Of a stretch of 64,000 bases of DNA, positions 28,134-38,609 are shown one piece after another. Location: assembly GCF_041886205.1 (NCBI RefSeq), contig NZ_CP169029.1; one strand, 5' to 3'. Under the pieces are notes generated by a model. That model searched no databases, had not been told where the DNA came from, and saw only the letters and a program-made list of their open reading frames with translations. Source of the DNA: Escherichia coli. Its GTDB lineage: Bacteria > Pseudomonadota > Gammaproteobacteria > Enterobacterales > Enterobacteriaceae. How positions within the stretch are numbered: the first letter of the stretch is position 1; each line of letters begins with the position of its first letter. Position numbers and translations under genes: made by a program.

Positions 28134-30572
28134 ATGGCTATCAAAAAAACCGAACTCTATTCTTCCCTGTGGGCAAGCTGCGACGAACTGCGTGGCGGGA
28201 TGGACGCCAGCCAGTACAAAGACTATGTACTGACCCTGCTGTTTATGAAGTACGTTTCCGATAAGTATAAAGGCGATCCTTACGGGATGATCGTGATACC
28301 CAAAGGAGCCAGCTTTGACGATATGGTTGCGCTGAAAAATGACAAAGAGATCGGCGATAAAATCAACAAAATCATCCACAAGCTGGCGGAAGAGAACGGC
28401 CTGAAGGGCGTCATCGACGAAGCCGACTTTAACGACGAAGATAAACTCGGCAAAGGCAAGGAAATGATTGACCGCCTGAGCAAGCTTGTCGGTATCTTTG
28501 AAGGGTTAGATCTCTCCAGCAACCGGGTCGAAGGCGACGATCTGCTGGGCGATGCCTATGAATATCTGATGCGTCACTTCGCAACCGAATCCGGCAAGAG
28601 TAAAGGACAGTTTTACACTCCGGCGGAGGTGTCACGTATTCTGGCAAAGGTGATTGGTATTACTCCCGATACGCCGCGAGATGCAACGGTTTATGACCCA
28701 ACCTGTGGCTCTGGTTCGCTGCTGTTGAAAGTGAATGATGAAGCCCGGCGCGGACTGTCGATTTTCGGCCAAGAGATGGATAACGCTACCAGTGCGCTGG
28801 CGCGGATGAACATGATTCTGCATAACAATGCCACCGCGAAAATCTGGCAGGGCAATACGCTGAGTGATCCGCAGTGGAAAGAGGCGAACGGCAAACTGAA
28901 AGCCTTCGATTTTGCCGTGGCGAACCCGCCTTTTTCCAATAAAAACTGGACCAACGGGCTGACGCCGAAAAAAGATCCGTTTGAACGCTTCGGCTGGGGT
29001 ATTCCGCCGGAAAAAAACGGCGATTATGCTTTTTTGTTGCATATCATTAAAAGCCTGAAAAGTACCGGCAAAGGCGCGGTGATCCTGCCCCACGGCGTAC
29101 TGTTTCGCGGTAACGCCGAAGCGAATATCCGTGAAAACCTAATCAAGCAGGGCTATATCAAAGGCGTTATTGGTTTGCCAGCCAACCTGTTTTACGGCAC
29201 CGGCATCCCGGCGTGCATCATTGTGATTGATAAAGAGCACGCCCACAGCCGCAAAGGCATTTTTATGATCGACGCCAGTCGGGGCTTTATCAAAGATGGC
29301 AACAAGAACCGCCTGCGTAGCCAAGATATTCACCGTATTGTGGACGTGTTCAACCATCAGCGAACGGTGCCAGGCTACAGCCGGATGGTGCCCTCCAGCG
29401 AGATCGCCGGGAATGATTACAACCTGAATATTCCTCGTTATATCGAGAGTGGAGAGCCGGAAGATTTGCACGATCTGACCGCGCACTTACAGGGCGGTAT
29501 TCCAGTGCGCGATGTAGATGCTTTGAAGGATTACTGGCGGGTATTCCCTGCCCTGCGTAATGTGCTGTTTGCTGACGACCACCCCGGTTACTGCCGGGCG
29601 CAAGTGGACGCGCAGCAGGTGAAACCGACCATTCTGGCTCATCAGGAGTTTAAGGATTTTGCCACCCGCAGCCTGCTACCGTTTAAGTCGTGGGTAAAAG
29701 AGGCAGGTCTGGAAGAGATCCGCAAAGGAGATAAACCCAAAGCGCTAATCCACGATATCAGCGAAATGCTATTGGCGCAGTACGCCAACAGTGAGTTGCT
29801 GAACAAATACAGCGTGTACCAGATCCTGATGGATTACTGGGCTGATGTCATGCAGGACGATGTGTATGTGATTATGCAGGATGGCTGGAAAGCCGCCGCG
29901 CAAATCCGCGAGCTTCAGCCGGTGAAAGGCAAAGATGGCAAAAACATCTGGAAAGAAACGCACGATTTCGAGTTTACCAAACGGCGCTACAAGGCCGATG
30001 TGCTGCCCCGTTCGCTGGTGGAAATTCGCTGTTTCCCGGAACTGCTGGATGCGCTGAACCGCGCGCAGGAGCGCAGTGAAGAAGCCAGTCGTCAGCTAGT
30101 GGAATTCATCGAGGAGCAGGCAGGGGAAGAGGATCTGCTGGCTGAGGTGAAAAACGATAAAGATAAGGTGACGCAAAAGCTGGTGAATGCCCGTCTGGCA
30201 CAGTTGAAGCCCCCCCCTGCCGACCCGGATGAGCTGGCAGTGCTGAACCGCTGTCTGGCGCTGATTAAGGCCGAGGCCAGTGCGAAAAAAGCGCTGAAAG
30301 CCGCACAGGAAGCGTTGGATCGAGCGGTATTTAAACATTATCCCACGCTGGATGAAGCAGCGATTAAAACGCTGGTAGTGCAGGATAAGTGGCTGGCAAC
30401 GTTGCAGGCAGGGATCAAAGCGGAGATAGAGCGTATTACCCAGCAACTGGCGTCGCGCGTAAAGGAGCTGGAAGAGCGTTATGCTGAACCGTTGCCAGCA
30501 CTTGAAGCCGCCGTTGAGGCGTTGAGCGAGAAAGTGGCCGGGCATTTGCGGGCGATGGGGCTGGAGTGGTGA
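28134..30572 (+). CDS. hsdM: Type I restriction-modification system methyltransferase subunit M with long C-terminal extension
   Basis: 812 aa; HsdM N-terminal domain (MAIKKTELYSSLWASCDELRGGMD), AdoMet motif VYDPTCGSGSLL, catalytic NPPF (FDFAVANPPFSNKNW); about 300-aa Ala/Glu/Lys-rich helical tail. Confidence 0.9.
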   Translation: MAIKKTELYSSLWASCDELRGGMDASQYKDYVLTLLFMKYVSDKYKGDPYGMIVIPKGASFDDMVALKNDKEIGDKINKIIHKLAEENGLKGVIDEADFNDEDKLGKGKEMIDRLSKLVGIFEGLDLSSNRVEGDDLLGDAYEYLMRHFATESGKSKGQFYTPAEVSRILAKVIGITPDTPRDATVYDPTCGSGSLLLKVNDEARRGLSIFGQEMDNATSALARMNMILHNNATAKIWQGNTLSDPQWKEANGKLKAFDFAVANPPFSNKNWTNGLTPKKDPFERFGWGIPPEKNGDYAFLLHIIKSLKSTGKGAVILPHGVLFRGNAEANIRENLIKQGYIKGVIGLPANLFYGTGIPACIIVIDKEHAHSRKGIFMIDASRGFIKDGNKNRLRSQDIHRIVDVFNHQRTVPGYSRMVPSSEIAGNDYNLNIPRYIESGEPEDLHDLTAHLQGGIPVRDVDALKDYWRVFPALRNVLFADDHPGYCRAQVDAQQVKPTILAHQEFKDFATRSLLPFKSWVKEAGLEEIRKGDKPKALIHDISEMLLAQYANSELLNKYSVYQILMDYWADVMQDDVYVIMQDGWKAAAQIRELQPVKGKDGKNIWKETHDFEFTKRRYKADVLPRSLVEIRCFPELLDALNRAQERSEEASRQLVEFIEEQAGEEDLLAEVKNDKDKVTQKLVNARLAQLKPPPADPDELAVLNRCLALIKAEASAKKALKAAQEALDRAVFKHYPTLDEAAIKTLVVQDKWLATLQAGIKAEIERITQQLASRVKELEERYAEPLPALEAAVEALSEKVAGHLRAMGLEW

Positions 30573-31921
30573 TGGTGGATTTAATGGTGAATGAGCAACG
30601 GTCGGGTACGGCGGGGAAAGATGTGCCTGCGGGGTATAAGCTGACTGAGGTGGGGGTGATTCCTGAGGATTGGGTAGTAATCTCTATTGATGACTGTACA
30701 ACCAAAGTTGGTAGTGGAAAAACACCAACTGGTGGAGCATCTGTTTATATTGATAGCGGACGCCCTTTTGTCCGTAGCCAAAATGTTGATTGGGGAAGAT
30801 TAGATCTCGCCGATGTCGTACATATTACAGATGAAACCCATAACACATTCTCTGGTTCTGAAATTCAGCAAGATGATGTTTTACTCAACATAACGGGAGC
30901 ATCTATCGGCCGATGCGCTAAAGCTGATTTTAGGGTTATAGGTGGTAATGTTAACCAACATGTTTGCATCATCAGAACAGAGGCAAAAAAACTCTCCCCA
31001 TCCTTACTGGTTGAATTAATCAATTCAAATTATGGACAAAACCAGATTGATAGTTATCAAGCCGGAGGAAACAGAGAAGGACTGAATTTTTCTCAAGTTA
31101 AAAATCTTAAGTTTGCTATTACACCAAACTCCTTTGAACAAACGGAAATTGTCAGAACATTAAATGATATTAATGCATTTACTCTCGCTCTGGAAAACTT
31201 AATTGCTAAAAAACAGGCCATAAAAGCCGCTGCTATGCAACAACTACTTACCGGTAAAACCCGTTTGCCACAGTTTGCGTTGCGCAAAGATGGCTCTGCT
31301 AAGGGATATAAAAAGAGCGAGTTGGGGGAGATTCCTGAAGATTGGAATTGTATTAATCTTGGTGAGCTAGGTAATTGCATTATTGGGTTAACTTACAAAC
31401 CTGAAGATACATCTGATTATGGTACATTGGTATTACGCTCATCCAACATTCAAAATAATCACTTAGCTTATGATGATAACGTCTTCGTCAGCATAGAACC
31501 ACCTGAGCGCACAATTGTGAAAGAAGGTGATATCTTGGTATGTGTAAGAAATGGCAGTCGCCAACTTATTGGCAAATGCGCATTAATTGACAAAAATGCG
31601 CAGGGCTCAGCATTCGGTGCATTTATGTCAGTATTCCGAACTGATATATATGGATTTACATTTCACCAATTCCAGTCTGATATTATTCAAAAGCAAATCG
31701 CTGAAGTTATGGGTGCCACTATCAATCAGATAACTAACAAAGATATGTTGGGCTTTAAAATCCCATTACCTGAAAATACAGAAGAACAAGCCGCCATCGC
31801 CGCCATCCTCTCCGATATGGACAAGGAAATCCAGATCCTGCAACAGCGTCTGGACAAAACCCGCCAGCTTAAGCAAGGGATGATGCAGGAACTGTTAACC
31901 GGGAAAATCCGCTTAATATAG
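30566..31921 (+). CDS. hsdS: Type I restriction-modification specificity subunit S
   Basis: 451 aa; two target-recognition domains each followed by conserved helical repeats (QAIKAAAMQQLLTGKTRLP and QAAIAAILSDMDKEIQILQQRLDKTRQLKQGMMQELLTGKIRL); start overlaps hsdM stop. Confidence 0.9.
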   Translation: MVMVDLMVNEQRSGTAGKDVPAGYKLTEVGVIPEDWVVISIDDCTTKVGSGKTPTGGASVYIDSGRPFVRSQNVDWGRLDLADVVHITDETHNTFSGSEIQQDDVLLNITGASIGRCAKADFRVIGGNVNQHVCIIRTEAKKLSPSLLVELINSNYGQNQIDSYQAGGNREGLNFSQVKNLKFAITPNSFEQTEIVRTLNDINAFTLALENLIAKKQAIKAAAMQQLLTGKTRLPQFALRKDGSAKGYKKSELGEIPEDWNCINLGELGNCIIGLTYKPEDTSDYGTLVLRSSNIQNNHLAYDDNVFVSIEPPERTIVKEGDILVCVRNGSRQLIGKCALIDKNAQGSAFGAFMSVFRTDIYGFTFHQFQSDIIQKQIAEVMGATINQITNKDMLGFKIPLPENTEEQAAIAAILSDMDKEIQILQQRLDKTRQLKQGMMQELLTGKIRLI

Positions 31922-31933
31922 AAGGGAAAGCAC

Positions 31934-32590
31934 ATGGCTTATGATTACAGCGCCAGCCTCAACCCGCAAAAAGCTCTGATCTGGCGTATCGTCCATCGGG
32001 ACAATATCCCGTGGATTCTGGATAACGGGCTGCACTGCGGCAACAGTCTGGTGCAGGCGGAAAACTGGATCAATATCGGCAACCCGGAGCTGATCGGCAA
32101 GCGTGCCGGGCATCCGGTACCTGTCGGAACGGGCGGGACACTGCATGACTATGTGCCGTTTTATTTTACCCCCTTCTCGCCAATGCTGATGAACATCCAC
32201 AGCGGGCGCGGCGGCATTAAGCAACGCCCCAATGAGGAGATCGTTATTCTGGTCAGCAACTTGCGAAACGTGGCAGCACACGACGTACCCTTCGTGTTTA
32301 CCGACAGCCATGCTTACTATAACTGGACCAACTACTACACCAGTCTGGATAGTCTGGACCAGATCGACTGGCCCATTTTGCAGGCACGGGACTTTCGCCG
32401 CGATCCAGACGATCCGGCTAAATTTGAACGCTATCAGGCAGAGGCGCTAATCTGGCAACACTGCCCGATCTCTCTGCTGGATGGGATAATTTGTTACAGC
32501 GAAGAGGTCAGGTTACAATTAGAACAATGGCTGTTTCAGCGTAATCTAACAATGTCCGTTCACACACGGGCTGGATGGTACTTCTCATGA
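31934..32590 (+). CDS. darT: DarT-like ssDNA ADP-ribosyltransferase toxin (DUF4433)
   Basis: 218 aa; motifs [30 protein letters not shown] and QAEALIW align by eye with DarT family; RBS GAAGGGA upstream; 16-bp overlap with darG. Confidence 0.85.
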
Positions 32591-33654
32591 TCACATATAC
32601 ACAAGGCAATTTACTGGACGCACCGGTGGAAGCTCTGGTGAATACGGTTAATACCGTCGGTGTCATGGGGAAAGGCATCGCGTTGATGTTTAAAGAGCGC
32701 TTCCCCGAAAATATGAAAGTCTATGCCCTCGCCTGCAAACAAAAGCAGGTGATCACCGGCAAAATGTTCATTACCGAAACCGGGGAACTGATGGGACCGC
32801 GCTGGATTGTTAATTTTCCGACCAAACAGCACTGGCGCGCTGATTCCCGCATGGAGTGGATTGAAGATGGCTTGCAGGACTTACGCCGCTTTTTGATTGA
32901 AGAGAACGTGCAGTCCATCGCCATTCCACCACTGGGCGCAGGCAACGGTGGTTTGAACTGGCCGGACGTTCGGGCGCAGATTGAATCTGCCCTTGGCGAC
33001 CTTCAGGACGTTGATATCCTGATTTACCAACCGACTGAAAAATACCAGAACGTTGCCAAAAGCACTGGCGTAAAAAAGCTCACTCCCGCCAGAGCCGCCA
33101 TCGCTGAACTGGTGCGTCGCTACTGGGTATTGGGGATGGAGTGCAGCCTACTGGAAATCCAGAAACTGGCCTGGCTGTTACAACGCGCCATTGAGCAGCA
33201 TCAACAGGACGATATCCTCAAACTGCGGTTTGAAGCTCACTATTATGGCCCCTATGCGCCCAATCTGAACCATCTGCTTAATGCGCTGGACGGCACCTAT
33301 CTTAAAGCCGAGAAACGCATCCCGGACAGCCAACCGCTGGATGTGATCTGGTTTAACGATCAGAAAAAAGAACACGTTAATGCGTATCTGAACAACGAAG
33401 CCAGAGAGTGGCTACCTGCGCTGGAGCAGGTCAGCCAGTTAATTGACGGCTTTGAATCGCCGTTTGGTCTGGAGTTGCTGGCAACCGTAGACTGGTTGCT
33501 GAGCCGTGGCGAATGTCAACCAACGCTGGATTCCGTTAAGGAAGGGCTGCACCAGTGGCCTGCGGGCGAACGCTGGGCCAGCCGTAAGTTGAGGCTGTTT
33601 GATAATAATAATCTGCAATTTGCCATTAACCGCGTAATGGAGTTCCATTGCTGA
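32575..33654 (+). CDS. darG: DarG-like macrodomain antitoxin (ADP-ribosylglycohydrolase)
   Basis: 359 aa; N-terminal macrodomain ([36 protein letters not shown]) plus C-terminal domain; translationally coupled to darT. Confidence 0.85.
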
Positions 33655-33672
33655 GGGTTTAAGGAGCGCCTT

Positions 33673-36600
33673 TTGAGTACCGTGGGCCAGCGCGAACGCG
33701 CCACACAGCAGCGTCTGATTCAGTTTTTTGTTGAAGATTTAGGTTACCGCCATCTGAGTCACCGCACCGGGTACACCGGGAACAGCAACATCGACACTAA
33801 TATACTGAGCGCGTGGCTAAAACGGCGCGGCGTTAATGATACGTTGATCACCCGGGCGTTGCGGCAACTGGATTCCGCCGCCGCTCTGGGCGAAGGCAAA
33901 AAACTCTATTACGCCAATAAAGAGGTCTATCGCCTACTGCGTTACGGCGTGAAAGACAAAGAAGGCGCAGGCGAGCAGAACCAAACCGTGTGGCTGATTG
34001 ACTGGGCCAACCCACAAGCCAATGATTTCGCCATCGCCGATGAGGTGACGGTCAAAGGCGAGTACTGCAAGCGCCCGGATCTGGTGCTGTACGTTAACGG
34101 CATTGCGCTGGGCGTGATTGAACTTAAGCGTTCGTCAGTGCACGTCAGCGAAGGCATCCGGCAGAATCTCGATAATCAAAAGAAAACCTTTATCCGCGAT
34201 TTCTTCACCACTATGCAGTTAGTGATGGCGGGCAACGATACGCAGGGCCTGCGCTACGGCACCATCGAAACCCCGGAAAAATACTATCTGGAGTGGAAAG
34301 AAGATAATCCAGGCGACTATACACATAAACTCGACTTTCATTTAAGTCGTCTGTGTAGCAAATCCAGGCTGTTGGATATCGTCCATAATTACATTGCCTT
34401 TGATGTCGGGGTGAAAAAACTCTGCCGCCATAATCAGTTCTTCGGCGTCGAGGCGGCTAAACAACATATTGCCCGTCGTGAAGGCGGTATTATCTGGCAC
34501 ACACAGGGATCGGGTAAAAGCCTGACGATGGTCTGGCTGGCGAAGTGGATCCGTGAAAATGTGCCAAACTCCCGCGTGTTGATTGTGACTGACCGCACCG
34601 AACTGGATGAACAGATCGAAAGCGTGTTTATGGGCGTGAATGAAGATATTTATCGCACCTCCAGCGGCAACGATCTTATCGCAACGCTCAATCATCCTAA
34701 CCCGTGGCTCATTTGCTCGCTGGTGCATAAATTTGGTCGTCGCAGCGAAGCTGAAGACAATGCAGCTACCGACGCCTTTATCACCGAATTACAGCACTCC
34801 CTGACGAAAACATTCCGCGCCAAAGGCGATCTGTTTGTTTTTGTGGACGAGTGCCACCGCACACAATCCGGCAAGCTGCATAACGCCATGACTGCCATTC
34901 TGCCGGACGCCCTGTTTATCGGTTTTACCGGCACACCGCTGATGAAGAAAGATAAGAAGAAGTCGGTTGAGGTGTTCGGCCCTTATATCCATACCTATAA
35001 ATTTGATGAAGCGGTGGCCGACGGTGTGGTGCTGGATCTGCGCTACGAGGCACGCGATATTGACCAGTATCTGACATCAGAGAAAAAGGTCGATGACTGG
35101 TTTGAAGCCAAGACTCGCGGTTTGTCGAATTTAGCTAGGACCCAGCTTAAGCAAAAGTGGGGATCAATGCAGAAGCTGCTCTCCAGCAAGTCGCGGCTGG
35201 AGCAGATCGTTAACGACATTTTGCTGGATATGGATACCCGTCCACGCCTGATGGACGGGCGCGGCAACGCCATGCTGGTATGCAGCAGTATCTATCAAGC
35301 CTGCAAGGTTTACGAGATGTTCAGCCAGACCGAGCTGGCAGGAAAAGTAGCGATTGTGACCAGCTATCGCCCCGATGCCGCCAGCATCAAAGGCGAAGAA
35401 ACGGGCGAAGGGTTAACGGAGAAACTCTCTAAACACGCCACCTATCGTAAAATGTTGGCTGACTATTTTGAACAAAGTGAAGAGAAGGCCGCCGCACGCA
35501 TTACCGAGTTCGAGCGGGAAGTGAAACAGCGTTTTATTGAAGAGCCGGGGCAAATGCGCCTGCTTATCGTGGTGGATAAGCTGCTGACTGGCTTTGACGC
35601 GCCGTCCGCCACCTATCTCTACATTGATAAAACCATGACCGACCATACGCTGTTTCAGGCGATTTGTCGGGTGAACCGGCTGGACGGTGAGGATAAAGAG
35701 TATGGCTATATTATCGATTATAAAGATCTGTTCCGTTCGCTGGATAAAGCGATTACCGATTACACCACGGGCGCGTTTGATGATTACGATCGGGACGATG
35801 TGGCCGGGTTGCTGAAAGACAGGCTAGAGCAGGCGCAACTGGATCTCGACAGCGCGCTGGAGATGGTTCGCAGCTTATGTGAACCCGTCAAAACCCCGCG
35901 CAGCCTGCAGGACTATCAGCACTATTTTTGCGGTGAATCAGGAGAGAATCAGACTTCGTTAAACGAAAAAGAGGCGCTGCGCCTGACATTTTACCAGTGC
36001 GTCGCCCGTCTGCTACGCGCTTATGCCAACATCGCCAATGAAATGCCGGAAGCAGGCTACACTGCCGAAGAGGTAGAGAGCATTCGCGCCGAAGTCGCTG
36101 AATTCGAAAAACTGCGCTATGAGATTAAGCTGACCAGCGGCGATCTTCTGGATATGAAGCGCTTTGAACCCGCTATGCGTCATTTACTGGATATGTATGT
36201 TCGCGCCGATGATAGCGAAGTGCTGATGGATTTTGAAGAGTTAAGTCTGATTGAACTGATTGTCGAGAAAGGCTTGGCGGCGACCGTCGCCCTGCCGGAT
36301 GATATCCGTAATAATCAGGATGCGATGGCGGAAACCATCGAAAACAACGTGCGCAAAACCATCGTGGATGAAAACCCGGTTAACCCAAAATACTATGGAC
36401 GCATGTCGCAACTGCTGGATGAACTGATTACCCTTCGCCGACAAAATGCGCTCAATTATCAGCAGTATCTGGAACGTATCCGCGATTTGTGTAAACAGGT
36501 CATCCGCCCGGAGCAAACCGCCGGAGCGTGCTACCCTGCCACCATGGATACACAAGCAAAGCGCGCCTTCTATGATAACTTCGGCCACGACGAGGTACTG

Positions 36601-36768
36601 GCGACCCGCATAGATACGACGATTCGCTATACCAAAAGGGCAGAGTGGATTGGCGATCGTTTTAAAGAACGGGAAATTGCCAACGCATTACGTGAAGAGA
36701 CCGCCAGCTATAATATTGATATTGATGAGGTGATAGCGCTTGCCCGTCAGCAGAAGGAATATCACTGA
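33673..36768 (+). CDS. hsdR: Type I restriction enzyme endonuclease/translocase subunit R
   Basis: 1031 aa; helicase motifs GSGKSLTM (Walker A) and FVFVDECHR (DEAH-like), N-terminal nuclease region; probable TTG start at 33673 preceded by AAGGAG. Confidence 0.9.
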   Translation: MSTVGQRERATQQRLIQFFVEDLGYRHLSHRTGYTGNSNIDTNILSAWLKRRGVNDTLITRALRQLDSAAALGEGKKLYYANKEVYRLLRYGVKDKEGAGEQNQTVWLIDWANPQANDFAIADEVTVKGEYCKRPDLVLYVNGIALGVIELKRSSVHVSEGIRQNLDNQKKTFIRDFFTTMQLVMAGNDTQGLRYGTIETPEKYYLEWKEDNPGDYTHKLDFHLSRLCSKSRLLDIVHNYIAFDVGVKKLCRHNQFFGVEAAKQHIARREGGIIWHTQGSGKSLTMVWLAKWIRENVPNSRVLIVTDRTELDEQIESVFMGVNEDIYRTSSGNDLIATLNHPNPWLICSLVHKFGRRSEAEDNAATDAFITELQHSLTKTFRAKGDLFVFVDECHRTQSGKLHNAMTAILPDALFIGFTGTPLMKKDKKKSVEVFGPYIHTYKFDEAVADGVVLDLRYEARDIDQYLTSEKKVDDWFEAKTRGLSNLARTQLKQKWGSMQKLLSSKSRLEQIVNDILLDMDTRPRLMDGRGNAMLVCSSIYQACKVYEMFSQTELAGKVAIVTSYRPDAASIKGEETGEGLTEKLSKHATYRKMLADYFEQSEEKAAARITEFEREVKQRFIEEPGQMRLLIVVDKLLTGFDAPSATYLYIDKTMTDHTLFQAICRVNRLDGEDKEYGYIIDYKDLFRSLDKAITDYTTGAFDDYDRDDVAGLLKDRLEQAQLDLDSALEMVRSLCEPVKTPRSLQDYQHYFCGESGENQTSLNEKEALRLTFYQCVARLLRAYANIANEMPEAGYTAEEVESIRAEVAEFEKLRYEIKLTSGDLLDMKRFEPAMRHLLDMYVRADDSEVLMDFEELSLIELIVEKGLAATVALPDDIRNNQDAMAETIENNVRKTIVDENPVNPKYYGRMSQLLDELITLRRQNALNYQQYLERIRDLCKQVIRPEQTAGACYPATMDTQAKRAFYDNFGHDEVLATRIDTTIRYTKRAEWIGDRFKEREIANALREETASYNIDIDEVIALARQQKEYH

Positions 36769-37484
36769 TGCCAATCATGCAAATAGGCTCGTTACACTTG
36801 CTGGTCAACCGTAAGGCGATTAAGAATCTGCATATCAGCGTGCTGCCGCCTGATGGCAAAGTCCGCGTTTCAGCGCCGGAACATATGACGGAGACGGCGA
36901 TTCGTATGGCGGTTGCTTCACGCTTTCGCTGGATCAGAAAACAGCAGCAGGATTTCGCCAGACAGCCTCGTCAATCAGAGAGGGAAATGGTCAGCGGAGA
37001 GTGCCACTATCTTTGGGGCCGAAGATATCGCCTACTTGTGATTGAGCGTCACGGGCGTCACGAAGTAAAAGTTGCGGGAAATAATAAGCTCCAGCTTTAT
37101 GTTCAACCGGGAACCCGTGATGAAAATAAGGCATTGGCGTTAAGTGAATTTTATCGACATGAACTAAAACAGCAGGTGGCTAAGCTTCTACCTGAATGGC
37201 AGGACCGAATCGGTGTTCCCCTAACATTCTGGGGCATCAAAAAGATGAAAACCTTTTGGGGCACCTGTAACACTACAACAAAACGAATCTGGCTCAATCT
37301 GGAGCTAATTAAGAAGCCGCCGGAGTGTCTGGAGTATATTCTGGTGCATGAACTGGTTCATCTTCTGGAACGTCACCATAATGCTCGCTTCCGGTTGCAT
37401 ATGGATCGGTTTATTCCTGACTGGCGTGAGCGTCGGGATTTGTTAAATAATATGCCGTTAGCGTTTGAGGCATGGGAGTATTGA
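36768..37484 (+). CDS. M48/DUF45-family zinc metallohydrolase (YgjP/WLM-like)
   Basis: 238 aa; HExxH motif in ILVHELVHLLERHHNARF; start overlaps hsdR stop, indicating co-transcription. Confidence 0.7.
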   Translation: MPIMQIGSLHLLVNRKAIKNLHISVLPPDGKVRVSAPEHMTETAIRMAVASRFRWIRKQQQDFARQPRQSEREMVSGECHYLWGRRYRLLVIERHGRHEVKVAGNNKLQLYVQPGTRDENKALALSEFYRHELKQQVAKLLPEWQDRIGVPLTFWGIKKMKTFWGTCNTTTKRIWLNLELIKKPPECLEYILVHELVHLLERHHNARFRLHMDRFIPDWRERRDLLNNMPLAFEAWEY

Positions 37485-38023
37485 TTGAGCCTGTAACTGT
37501 TTTTTGTCCATAAATTAACCTTCATTTGATGCTGGATTGAACATATCAAAATCAGACAATTACACAAATCTATGTACAGGCTCAACTCCTGCCATGGAAC
37601 GTAGTACTCACCAATAAGTAAGCATCAATACGGCGCTCCGTTAACGCTTACTAGCATGGTTATCTCCTTAAAAAATTGAGGCGACAACTATGCTGACGCA
37701 GGGGGGTATTGGGTGATCTCCTTCCATGAAAATACGCAGCTTGATTGCATTAAATTTATTTAATTTGCACTAATTTTGTTTAAGTTACATTACCACACGT
37801 GGGATATTGGAATACAAGCAACGCGAGGAATCAGTAAATATACCAATAATTGTATCACCCCTTTAATATTCATTAAGGTTTCAGGCCCTCCGGCACGATT
37901 CACCTGGCGAATCAATTCACGAGTCGCCCCAGAGTCACCGCCAATAAACATGCGATTCAACTCCCGATTCGATTCTCACTAATCTATTGTTTTATATAAA
38001 GATAGTCAGTACTGACTCTGTGA

Positions 38024-38063
38024 CGACTCGCCGATGACTTGCCATAGAGTCATCGGCGAGTCG
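38024..38063. repeat. Perfect 16-bp inverted repeat (hairpin) with 8-nt loop
   Basis: CGACTCGCCGATGACT-TGCCATAG-AGTCATCGGCGAGTCG; no flanking T/A run, so not a classical terminator. Confidence 0.45.
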
Positions 38064-38273
38064 GATCGGCATAATAAAAATTATCATAACGTAATTCTGA
38101 AATTATAACTTTATGATTTTAAATACCTATCAGCAAAAACTTGGTTTTGCATGGGGTGTGGAGATTTTGAGGTAAGAAGCAGGCTATCGTAAAATAGCCT
38201 GCTGGGATGGATTCAGTAATCACCGAATAAATTGCGGAGCAAAAAAACCGCCAATCAAGAGATGGGTTAGCAA

Positions 38274-38609
38274 TCAATTTTCGTATTTAAATTCAATATT
38301 AATCTTTAAAGCCTCTACATCTACTGTCACTTCACAGCCATGCCAGAATGGTTTTTCCTGAGATTTAAAGTTATCTAGAAAATAATTTCTTAATTCCACA
38401 AGAAAATCAAATAAATCACCGTTTGCTTGTGCCCCTGCCGAAAACCAATCAGTATTGCCAGTATCTGCATTTATATAGTCAAATTCACATTTACAATGAT
38501 CATTTTCAGGAGACAGTTCTGCTCTCATGATCACTTTGGATGCATTTTCAGGCGCAATGGATAGCAATACTGAACCTATATCATTATAAATCTCTTGATC
38601 AGTCCTCAC
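38274..38609 (-). CDS. Putative CdiI-type immunity protein of orphan module
   Basis: 111-aa ORF whose ATG directly follows the stop of the VENN-containing toxin fragment; no family recognised, assignment by gene context. Confidence 0.5.
   Translation of the reverse strand: MRTDQEIYNDIGSVLLSIAPENASKVIMRAELSPENDHCKCEFDYINADTGNTDWFSAGAQANGDLFDFLVELRNYFLDNFKSQEKPFWHGCEVTVDVEALKINIEFKYEN

Follow-up and report, generated by a model that had tools for sequence, protein, structure and literature searches.

Introduction

In the relaxosome that is assembled at the origin of transfer (oriT) of plasmid F, TraM contacts the sbmC site at +93 to +117, and a construct that reaches +143 holds the full site (PMC12117103). 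The TraY train of F occupies +61 to +90 and IHFa occupies +23 to +60, and the footprints of F TraM on duplex DNA are centered between the sbmC inverted repeats. Positions T141′, G142′, and G144′ of the nic region are critical for binding and cleavage by the relaxase TraI (PMC2504302). [quoted passage not shown] Replicons that carry only oriT(F) are mobilized in trans by the tra genes of F (PMC9282650), and chromosomal oriTs have been reported in approximately 9% of E. coli chromosomes (PMC10123127). Standard pipelines leave oriTs unannotated, so an orphan chromosomal oriT passes unnoticed even though it is decisive for mobilization by a helper.

The DNA analyzed here (64 kb, hereafter the window) is an E. 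coli chromosomal island. An earlier note on it had singled out an isolated perfect palindrome in a noncoding gap. As described below, this palindrome is very probably the sbmC-type TraM-binding inverted repeat of a divergent, unannotated, orphan oriT of the F family that extends from approximately 37742 to 38216. The F-type oriT is a known kind of site, and the present copy is a further predicted member.

Results

The Palindrome and Its Surroundings

The genes upstream of the palindrome are hsdM, hsdS, darT, darG, hsdR, and a gene for a YgjP-like metallopeptidase that ends at 37484. Those downstream, on the minus strand, comprise a cdiI-like gene and truncated toxin/immunity modules, together with IS66 and IS110 elements. 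The features that border the oriT module are as follows:

37584–37651: solo terminal fragment of an IS66-family element, 68 nt, with 94% identity to IS66-family ends found directly beside the oriT of other strains
37707–37741: first codons of a truncated orphan toxin module
38274–38609, minus strand: cdiI-like immunity gene, 111 aa, YezG-like (Pfam YezG-like, E = 7.7e-5), which would lie first among the genes on the leading side

The DarT/DarG toxin–antitoxin pair is located inside the type I RM operon, between hsdS and hsdR (approximately 29000–37484, by homology), and the gene for the YgjP-like (M48/SprT-like) metallopeptidase overlaps the stop codon of hsdR. An 11-bp perfect inverted repeat, TTGAGCCTGTA / TACAGGCTCAA, brackets 79 nt (37485–37585). 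It begins one base after the stop codon of the peptidase gene and ends where the IS66 fragment begins; a search of Rfam gave only a chance microRNA match, and the repeat may be the scar of a small mobile element. The truncated module at 37707–37741, which amounts to 35 nt at the left of the oriT module, is separated from the IS66 fragment by approximately 55 nt and is matched at 100% in many E. coli chromosomes. In strains M8 and L017 the equivalent segment starts a short ORF (MKGDHPITGAVSGEVTGNQVKDKLDKVGNKNGNN) that is followed by a 78-aa membrane protein, and the two look like a further small orphan toxin/immunity pair.

The 16-bp perfect stem and 8-nt loop described in the earlier note were confirmed, with arms that are 100% complementary:

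38024–38039: left arm, CGACTCGCCGATGACT
38048–38063: right arm, AGTCATCGGCGAGTCG

No other inverted repeat with arms at most 30 nt apart is as long in the whole 64-kb window, and the arm sequence occurs there once. We estimate that chance would produce approximately 3e-4 perfect repeats of 16 bp with loops of at most 20 nt in 64 kb. The CGATTCA-type repeats that had been noticed at 37880–37980 are also real and correspond to GANTC motifs (GATTC, GAATC, GAGTC) spaced 11–12 bp apart, at 37897, 37909, 37921, 37932, 37954, 37966, and 37971. The gap of approximately 800 bp in which they lie is not featureless, however, since it holds the IS66-family end, the start of the truncated orphan toxin module, and the oriT module. 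Nor is the palindrome isolated. GANTC or near-GANTC motifs occur within it at 38025 (GACTC), 38036 (GACTT), 38047 (GAGTC), and 38058 (GAGTC), in 11-bp phase with those at 38003 (TAGTC) and 38014 (GACTC). A density of 11 GANTC per 200 nt is the maximum for the window, compared with a background of 2.6 per kb.

Read on the minus strand, the palindrome follows the cdiI stop codon at a distance of 210 nt and would form a strong hairpin, so that a terminator or RNA-stability hairpin for the cdi orphan operon of that strand, or else a small RNA, might be sought here. Neither strand carries a T or A run next to the palindrome, no U tract would follow the hairpin in either direction, and a terminator scan made no call, in agreement with the earlier opinion that an intrinsic terminator was unlikely. 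The best Rfam match was to a microRNA model with E = 3.7, so that no family scored above chance, and the homologous dyads of plasmids lie in oriT DNA that is not transcribed. A role of the palindrome in RNA is therefore extremely unlikely, and a site in oriT DNA is preferred. Known structured RNAs were also rejected over the wider search of Rfam at permissive E-values, which returned only chance microRNA and snoRNA matches (E = 0.87–7.9, far below gathering scores). Dispersed repeats (REP/BIME, ERIC, and MITEs) were rejected on copy number, with one copy in the window and a median of one and at most two in the carrier genomes.

Identification of an F-Type oriT Module

The window from 37988 to 38181 matches the intergenic oriT between traM and the SLT gene at approximately 1900 sites of F-like plasmids, with 68–73% identity and E-values from 4e-9 to 6e-13; these matches were collected in a low-stringency search of E. 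coli genomes. The plasmid matches adjoin a gene annotated as "transglycosylase SLT", and the position between traM and this gene (gene X) is that of the classical F-type oriT. Small plasmids without a relaxase match the oriT module at E = 3e-16. A chromosomal copy of the type found in E. coli C11 shares 94% with the window over 37738–38169.

Three alignments were used. In two of them (A1 and A2, the latter with seven oriTs) the window was compared with F, an R1-like plasmid of E. coli, a pKpQIL-like plasmid of Klebsiella, three small ColE1-type plasmids that lack a relaxase, and another chromosomal copy. The third (A3) contains the window, C11 (two copies), the Salmonella plasmid pCFSAN006171_1, and the Enterobacter plasmid pJBIWA003_1. 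The window is colinear with F, the R1-like plasmid, the pKpQIL-like plasmid, and the small oriT-only plasmids from nic to the sbm arrays, and the stretch from nic to the dyad aligns with F-like oriTs without gaps. The parts assigned to the module are as follows:

37742–38216, plus strand: whole orphan F-type oriT module, approximately 480 bp; the plus strand is the predicted transferred (T) strand
37807–37834: left conserved block TTGGAATACAAGCAACGCGAGGAATCAG, common to the oriTs of the HTH–primase–recombinase elements described below, with columns that are invariant in A3
37897–37975: GANTC arrays, the equivalent of sbmA/sbmB, matched in the alignment by GANTC arrays located upstream of traM in the pKpQIL-like and R1-like plasmids
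37980–37992, minus strand: IHF-consensus-like site (WATCAANNNNTTR with one mismatch) in a spacer of 80% AT, at +168 to +180; assigned to IHFb by position only
38003–38063: predicted TraM site equivalent to sbmC, with six motif positions in 11-bp phase; the palindrome is 38024–38063
38064–38105: AT-rich stretch at the position of the TraY sites of F (sbyA/sbyC), assigned by position only
38106–38118, minus strand: site AATCATAAAGTTA at the position of IHFa, +42 to +54 from the predicted nic
38129–38143: block ATCAGCAAAAACTTG, with no difference between F, the R1-like plasmid, and the C11 copy; the other three oriTs of A2 keep most of it
38146–38162, plus strand: predicted core for TraI relaxase binding and nicking, TTTGCATGGGGTGT/GGA, where the slash marks the predicted nic between 38159 and 38160
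38179–38202: hairpin GCAGGCTAT-cgtaaa-ATAGCCTGC on the 5′ (leading) side of nic

The order of sites is the same as in F, namely nic, IHFa, the TraY region, sbmC, IHFb, and sbmB/sbmA, with IHFa, TraY, and IHFb assigned by their positions. The sequence at 38064–38105 is not conserved with F, which counts against the identification, and TraY sites are allele-specific. The nic core TTTGCATGGGGTGT/GG (38146–38161) and that of F, TTTGCGTGGGGTGT/GG, are equal at 15 of 16 positions, and the critical positions T141′, G142′, and G144′ are all present. At 38151, within the TraI site, the copies of the window type, and only these, have A instead of G; the column is invariant in the other six oriTs, and the change weighs against the identification. 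The sequence of the nic region as an oligonucleotide is TTTGCATGGGGTGTGGAGATTT. The predicted nic is 96 bp to the right of the palindrome, which consequently spans +97 to +136. The hairpin at 38179–38202 and its flank as far as GGATTCAG (38216) are kept in the oriTs of the Salmonella and Enterobacter elements, and the hairpin is therefore a part of the oriT and not a terminator for cdiI. Homology, the order and spacing of the sites, the phasing of the motifs, and the conservation of the dyad together identify the module as a predicted oriT.

Conservation of the Dyad

The dyad was compared across the seven oriTs of A2. In six of the seven the best inverted repeat falls on the same columns (222–261, center 241.5), although the sequences of the arms are unrelated: CGGTGTCGGCGCG in F, ATTCGTGATAGATTC in the R1-like plasmid, AGACTCTATCCAGACTCTA in the pKpQIL-like plasmid (a perfect 19-bp repeat), and CGACTCGCCGATGACT in the window. 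Of all paired cells, 91% are complementary, and 14 of the 16 pairs show compensatory changes on both sides, which is reached in none of 500 shuffles. When the partners were slid by 1–3 columns, pairing fell to only 29–39%. The sbmC dyad is thus conserved in position, with compensatory change, across divergent F-like oriTs.

The same result bears on whether the palindrome might act as a hairpin or cruciform instead of as a TraM site on duplex DNA. It would then be a structural signal, for termination or priming for instance, either in supercoiled DNA or in the transferred single strand. The region folds very stably on either strand (z-scores of −5.4 and −4.3), and the spacers between the GANTC motifs covary across plasmids in a way that keeps the arms complementary. 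The complementarity of these spacers has no obvious need in a protein that reads only GANTC, and to this extent it counts against a TraM site. The repeat of F, however, is footprinted by TraM on duplex DNA and is modeled as a duplex in the relaxosome. In the copy from a small Klebsiella plasmid the dyad is shifted by half a motif step (center at column 236) while the phasing of the motifs is kept, and in the C11-type copy (four genomes) an uncompensated T to C change is found in the spacer of an arm with all motifs intact. A purely structural signal is accordingly improbable, and the two roles are not mutually exclusive. The reading as a duplex TraM site is retained below.

GANTC Motifs and the Type of TraM

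In the oriTs of the GANTC type the motif positions are in register, at columns 212, 223, 234, 245, and 256. The array to the left of the palindrome contains a staggered site of four positions, GATTC-AACTC-cc-GATTC-GATTC at 37954–37975, in which one position (AACTC) is degenerate. This site is spaced 5/7/5, as is GATTCGAATCTGGATTCGA(A/T)TC in related elements. With this spacing the first and third motifs, and the second and fourth, are 12 bp apart, which is the pairing described for sbmA.

The residues that read DNA were compared with the neighboring oriT in four plasmids. The TraM proteins of the R1-like plasmid (Lys3, Gln5, Tyr7) and the pKpQIL-like plasmid (Arg3, Gln5, Tyr7) are both encoded beside GANTC-rich oriTs, whereas F (Asn5) and an R100-like plasmid (Ile5) have oriTs without GANTC at these sites. 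Since Gln5-type TraM and GANTC-rich oriTs occur together, as in the rule from the TraM structure, the oriT of the window therefore appears to be built for a TraM of the Gln5 type. The suggestion in the earlier note of a protein-binding or recombination site fits in its first part, as protein binding is the most likely role and the nearby repeats belong with the palindrome; it was generic, and the identity as a TraM site had been missed.

Distribution and Copies in Other Strains

The earlier note had proposed a search for other copies, and had treated a unique, unconserved sequence as evidence against its reading. Copies were found in 19 E. coli genomes, and homology extends to thousands of plasmid oriTs. 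The 19 genomes, among 5426 complete E. coli genomes, carry the 121 bp around the palindrome, always in the chromosome, with one copy as the median and two as the maximum. Nine copies are 100% identical over these 121 bp, and the palindrome is exact in all four window-type copies that were checked directly. The nic side faces a cdiI-like gene in five of the five contexts inspected. This gene belongs either to a full cdiBAI locus, as its cdiI, or to an orphan module; in other strains it comes immediately after a full-length cdiA or after an orphan EndoNS toxin. Every copy of the oriT that was inspected is annotated as "none". Thousands of further database matches trace to the separate IS66 end at 37584–37651 and not to the palindrome.

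Junctions of IS66-family elements cluster in and around the oriT. An IS end occurs at 37989 in strains of the CFSAN064036 type and at 38005 in GN02350, and ZYB62 carries an ISEc23 immediately 3′ of the predicted nic, where the 8 bp at 38160–38167 are duplicated. In several strains the oriT is interrupted by insertions of this family, which would be expected if the DNA is only weakly selected.

These insertions, the rarity of the oriT (19 of 5426 genomes), and its orphan state would suit a palindrome that is a functionless product of chance or a decaying fossil. A perfect 16-bp dyad is far beyond chance, and it is exact in the four window-type copies checked. The word fossil, moreover, describes present activity and not identity, which is settled by homology. 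As an account of what the palindrome is, this explanation has a next to negligible probability, and the sbmC-type site is again preferred.

Absence of Transfer Genes at the Locus

No traM, traY, or traI gene was found in the 64-kb window, and the oriT is therefore an orphan. Its flanks are the cdiI-like gene on one side and the orphan toxin fragment and IS66 end on the other, compared with traM and the SLT gene in conjugative plasmids. A remnant of traM was sought to the left of the GANTC arrays, where the three minus-strand frames contain only short ORFs and nothing TraM-like. The plasmid alignments show no similarity past the sbm arrays.

A distant search of PLSDB returned no conjugative plasmid with an oriT more than approximately 73% identical. 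With the sbm region alone, the search of PLSDB returned only six plasmids, which are typed as non-mobilizable (five of 4.7–8.4 kb and one Pantoea replicon of 557 kb). A scan of genome contigs with a degenerate pattern gave three matches, namely a 3.7-kb Klebsiella grimontii contig, in which an F-type nic core also matches, and two sub-kb contigs from unrelated genera. A scan of metagenomes gave four matches; the three contigs of sufficient length show the cdi-linked arrangements of E. coli chromosomes. No cognate helper was identified, and in the carrier strain M3 the F-like plasmid has an R100-like (Ile5) TraM and a non-GANTC oriT. When a plasmid-borne cdiI beside an oriT was sought, the only homologues obtained had at most 56% identity, in plasmids of Cronobacter, Pantoea, and Ralstonia.

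A Primase–Recombinase Element That Carries Related oriTs

In the C11-type strains (four E. coli genomes) the oriT is contiguous with a block of genes that has been inserted between cdiA and an orphan array like that of EC869. The block encodes an Xre-type HTH protein, a CHC2/Toprim primase of 1031 aa, a XerC-like tyrosine recombinase, and DinJ/RelE. In the E. coli C11 chromosome the element has the following coordinates in the two extracted loci:

L003, 741–6200: the element
L015, 21890–28000: the element

The same block is found on the Salmonella plasmid and the Enterobacter plasmid, with a primase that is 88–90% identical and with its own F-like oriT beside the HTH gene. The element measures approximately 6.5–8.4 kb. 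It is present in tandem 8394-bp copies in pJBIWA003_1, and the Salmonella copy has a ParD/ParE-type toxin–antitoxin pair in place of DinJ/RelE. Toxin cassettes that contain VENN, along with small membrane ORFs, occur in the Enterobacter and C11 copies, and in the Enterobacter copies these ORFs come after the cassettes. In the first cassette of pJBIWA003_1, VVVENN comes after a lipoprotein signal peptide. A Campbell-type event through VENN homology was considered as the way in which the C11 element integrated, and it was rejected, as the search for flanking direct repeats gave nothing beyond a 79-nt match of 73%.

In all element oriTs, a block of the form (A/C)AGCAACGCGAGG(N)(N)TCAG separates the conserved HTH-side sequence from the variable sbm region. 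This block occurs at 37807–37834 in the window and is duplicated approximately 240 bp apart in C11 (L003, 5600–5625 and 5838–5860), and it may be a recombination or regulatory site. In the chromosome of E. coli MP1 near yddH (L024, 7441–19360), tandem relatives of the element that lack an oriT are found in an Rhs locus. No F-like nic core and no GANTC cluster were detected in them. The same kind of element thus also associates with Rhs loci.

Because the C11-type oriT abuts the HTH gene and the HTH–primase–recombinase block, and because tyrosine recombinases use inverted-repeat sites, the palindrome could be imagined as a site for the Xre-type HTH protein of the element, or as an att- or dif-like site for its XerC-like recombinase. 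F, R1-like, and pKpQIL-like plasmids, which lack these genes, nevertheless have homologous dyads there. The Salmonella and Enterobacter elements, which have the genes, lack such a palindrome sequence at that position, and the copies of the window type retain the palindrome without HTH or recombinase genes. Recognition by a protein of the element is thus very unlikely, and TraM remains the probable ligand.

The window shares with the element oriTs both the left block (37807–37834) and the right block that includes the hairpin at 38179–38202. Of such an element it most likely retains no more than the end with the cassette and the oriT, and its oriT is most likely the leftover of a plasmid-like integrative element. 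The proposal in the earlier note that the palindrome marks a module boundary holds only in the sense that the oriT would be a mobile-element leftover lodged 3′ of a cdi toxin/immunity module.

Discussion

Proposed Mechanism and Polarity of Transfer

By analogy with the relaxosomes of F and R1, we infer TraM binding, nicking, and mobilization at the oriT of the window along the following lines. A coresident F-like helper plasmid would supply the proteins. The AT-rich DNA at 38064–38143 would be bent by IHF and TraY, and the TraI relaxase would bind TTTGCATGGGGTGT on the plus strand and nick between 38159 and 38160. TraM tetramers would seat their ribbon-helix-helix dimers on GANTC motifs 11–12 bp apart, with four to six motifs in and beside the palindrome and the seven motifs at 37897–37975 as the predicted targets, and would link the complex to the coupling protein TraD. 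The symmetry of the dyad would then mirror the 2-fold arrangement of TraM on double-stranded DNA. The oriT may be silent unless a cognate helper with a Gln5-type TraM is present. In principle, such a helper plasmid could mobilize this chromosomal region.

The plus strand would leave 5′-first in the rightward direction, so that cdiI and the orphan toxin/immunity array would enter the recipient first, as in an Hfr cross. Since cdiI and the orphan array are on the minus strand, the incoming plus strand would be their template. The leading-region genes of F share this orientation, with the transferred strand as the template.

A Possible Vehicle for CDI Modules

Beyond its identity, the oriT is of added interest for its association with CDI toxin/immunity cassettes and with a primase–recombinase element that may carry them. 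We propose tentatively, as a possibility that is less probable than not, that this oriT is the transfer origin of small integrative mobilizable elements composed of an F-type oriT, an Xre HTH gene, a CHC2/Toprim primase, a XerC-like recombinase, DinJ/RelE, and VENN-toxin/immunity cassettes. Such elements would ride on F-like helpers, lodge 3′ of polymorphic-toxin loci, and serve as a vehicle for cdiA-CT/cdiI modules and orphan arrays. If this is true, the immunity genes would be on the first-transferred, template-strand side of nic, as are the leading-region genes of F, and the first DNA to enter a recipient would be the CDI immunity gene and the orphan toxin/immunity array. Published models for the spread of cdiA-CT/cdiI invoke "intervening integrase and transposase genes" and name no vehicle (PMC4927057). 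For the spread of these modules between strains and their pile-up as orphans, the link to an oriT element gives a hypothesis that can be tested by mating.

Comparison with Known Systems

The MGIs that are mobilized by SXT/R391, and SGI1, which is mobilized by IncA/C plasmids, carry an oriT in cis without a relaxase or mating apparatus of their own. The logic of the window oriT would be the same. It differs from them in the family of the oriT (MOBF, F-like) and in the cargo (CDI toxin/immunity cassettes).

The sbmC site of F (CGGTGTCGGCGCG-10 nt-CGCGCCGACACCG) occupies the same alignment columns as the palindrome of the window and has the same dyad center and distance from nic. The sequence of the arms is unrelated, and the motifs are GANTC in the window compared with A(G/C)CG(C/G)T in F. 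The oriT of F sits between traM and gene X, and both of these genes are absent from the window locus. With the GANTC-type TraM sites of pED208 and R1, the window shares the symmetry of the inverted repeat, the phasing of 11–12 bp, and the staggered four-position site with 5/7/5 spacing. It differs from them in that TraM binding is predicted, one of the staggered positions is degenerate, and the sbmC array consists mainly of GAGTC and GACTC.

The oriT of the pKpQIL-like IncFII(K) Klebsiella plasmid has a perfect 19-bp palindrome, AGACTCTATCCAGACTCTA-tt-TAGAGTCTGGATAGAGTCT, on the same columns, with GACTC and GAGTC 11 bp apart and a TraM with Gln5 and Tyr7. Unlike the oriT of the window, it belongs to a conjugative plasmid and has traM and the SLT gene as its neighbors. 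The oriT of the small Klebsiella plasmid is approximately 72% identical to that of the pKpQIL-like plasmid from sbmC to nic; the window was compared with pKpQIL only within A2.

The relaxase-less small ColE1-type plasmids with oriT(F) (pSe-Kan and pKPN2; the "pOriT" of Ares-Arroyo et al.) carry orphan F-type oriTs for which a helper provides TraI, TraY, and TraM in trans. Plasmids of the pSe-Kan/pKPN2 type are the best database matches to the window, with 69–70% identity over 278 bp, and share the first arm, GACGACTCGCCG. They are free multicopy plasmids, whereas the copy in the window is chromosomal and lies inside a cdi orphan array.
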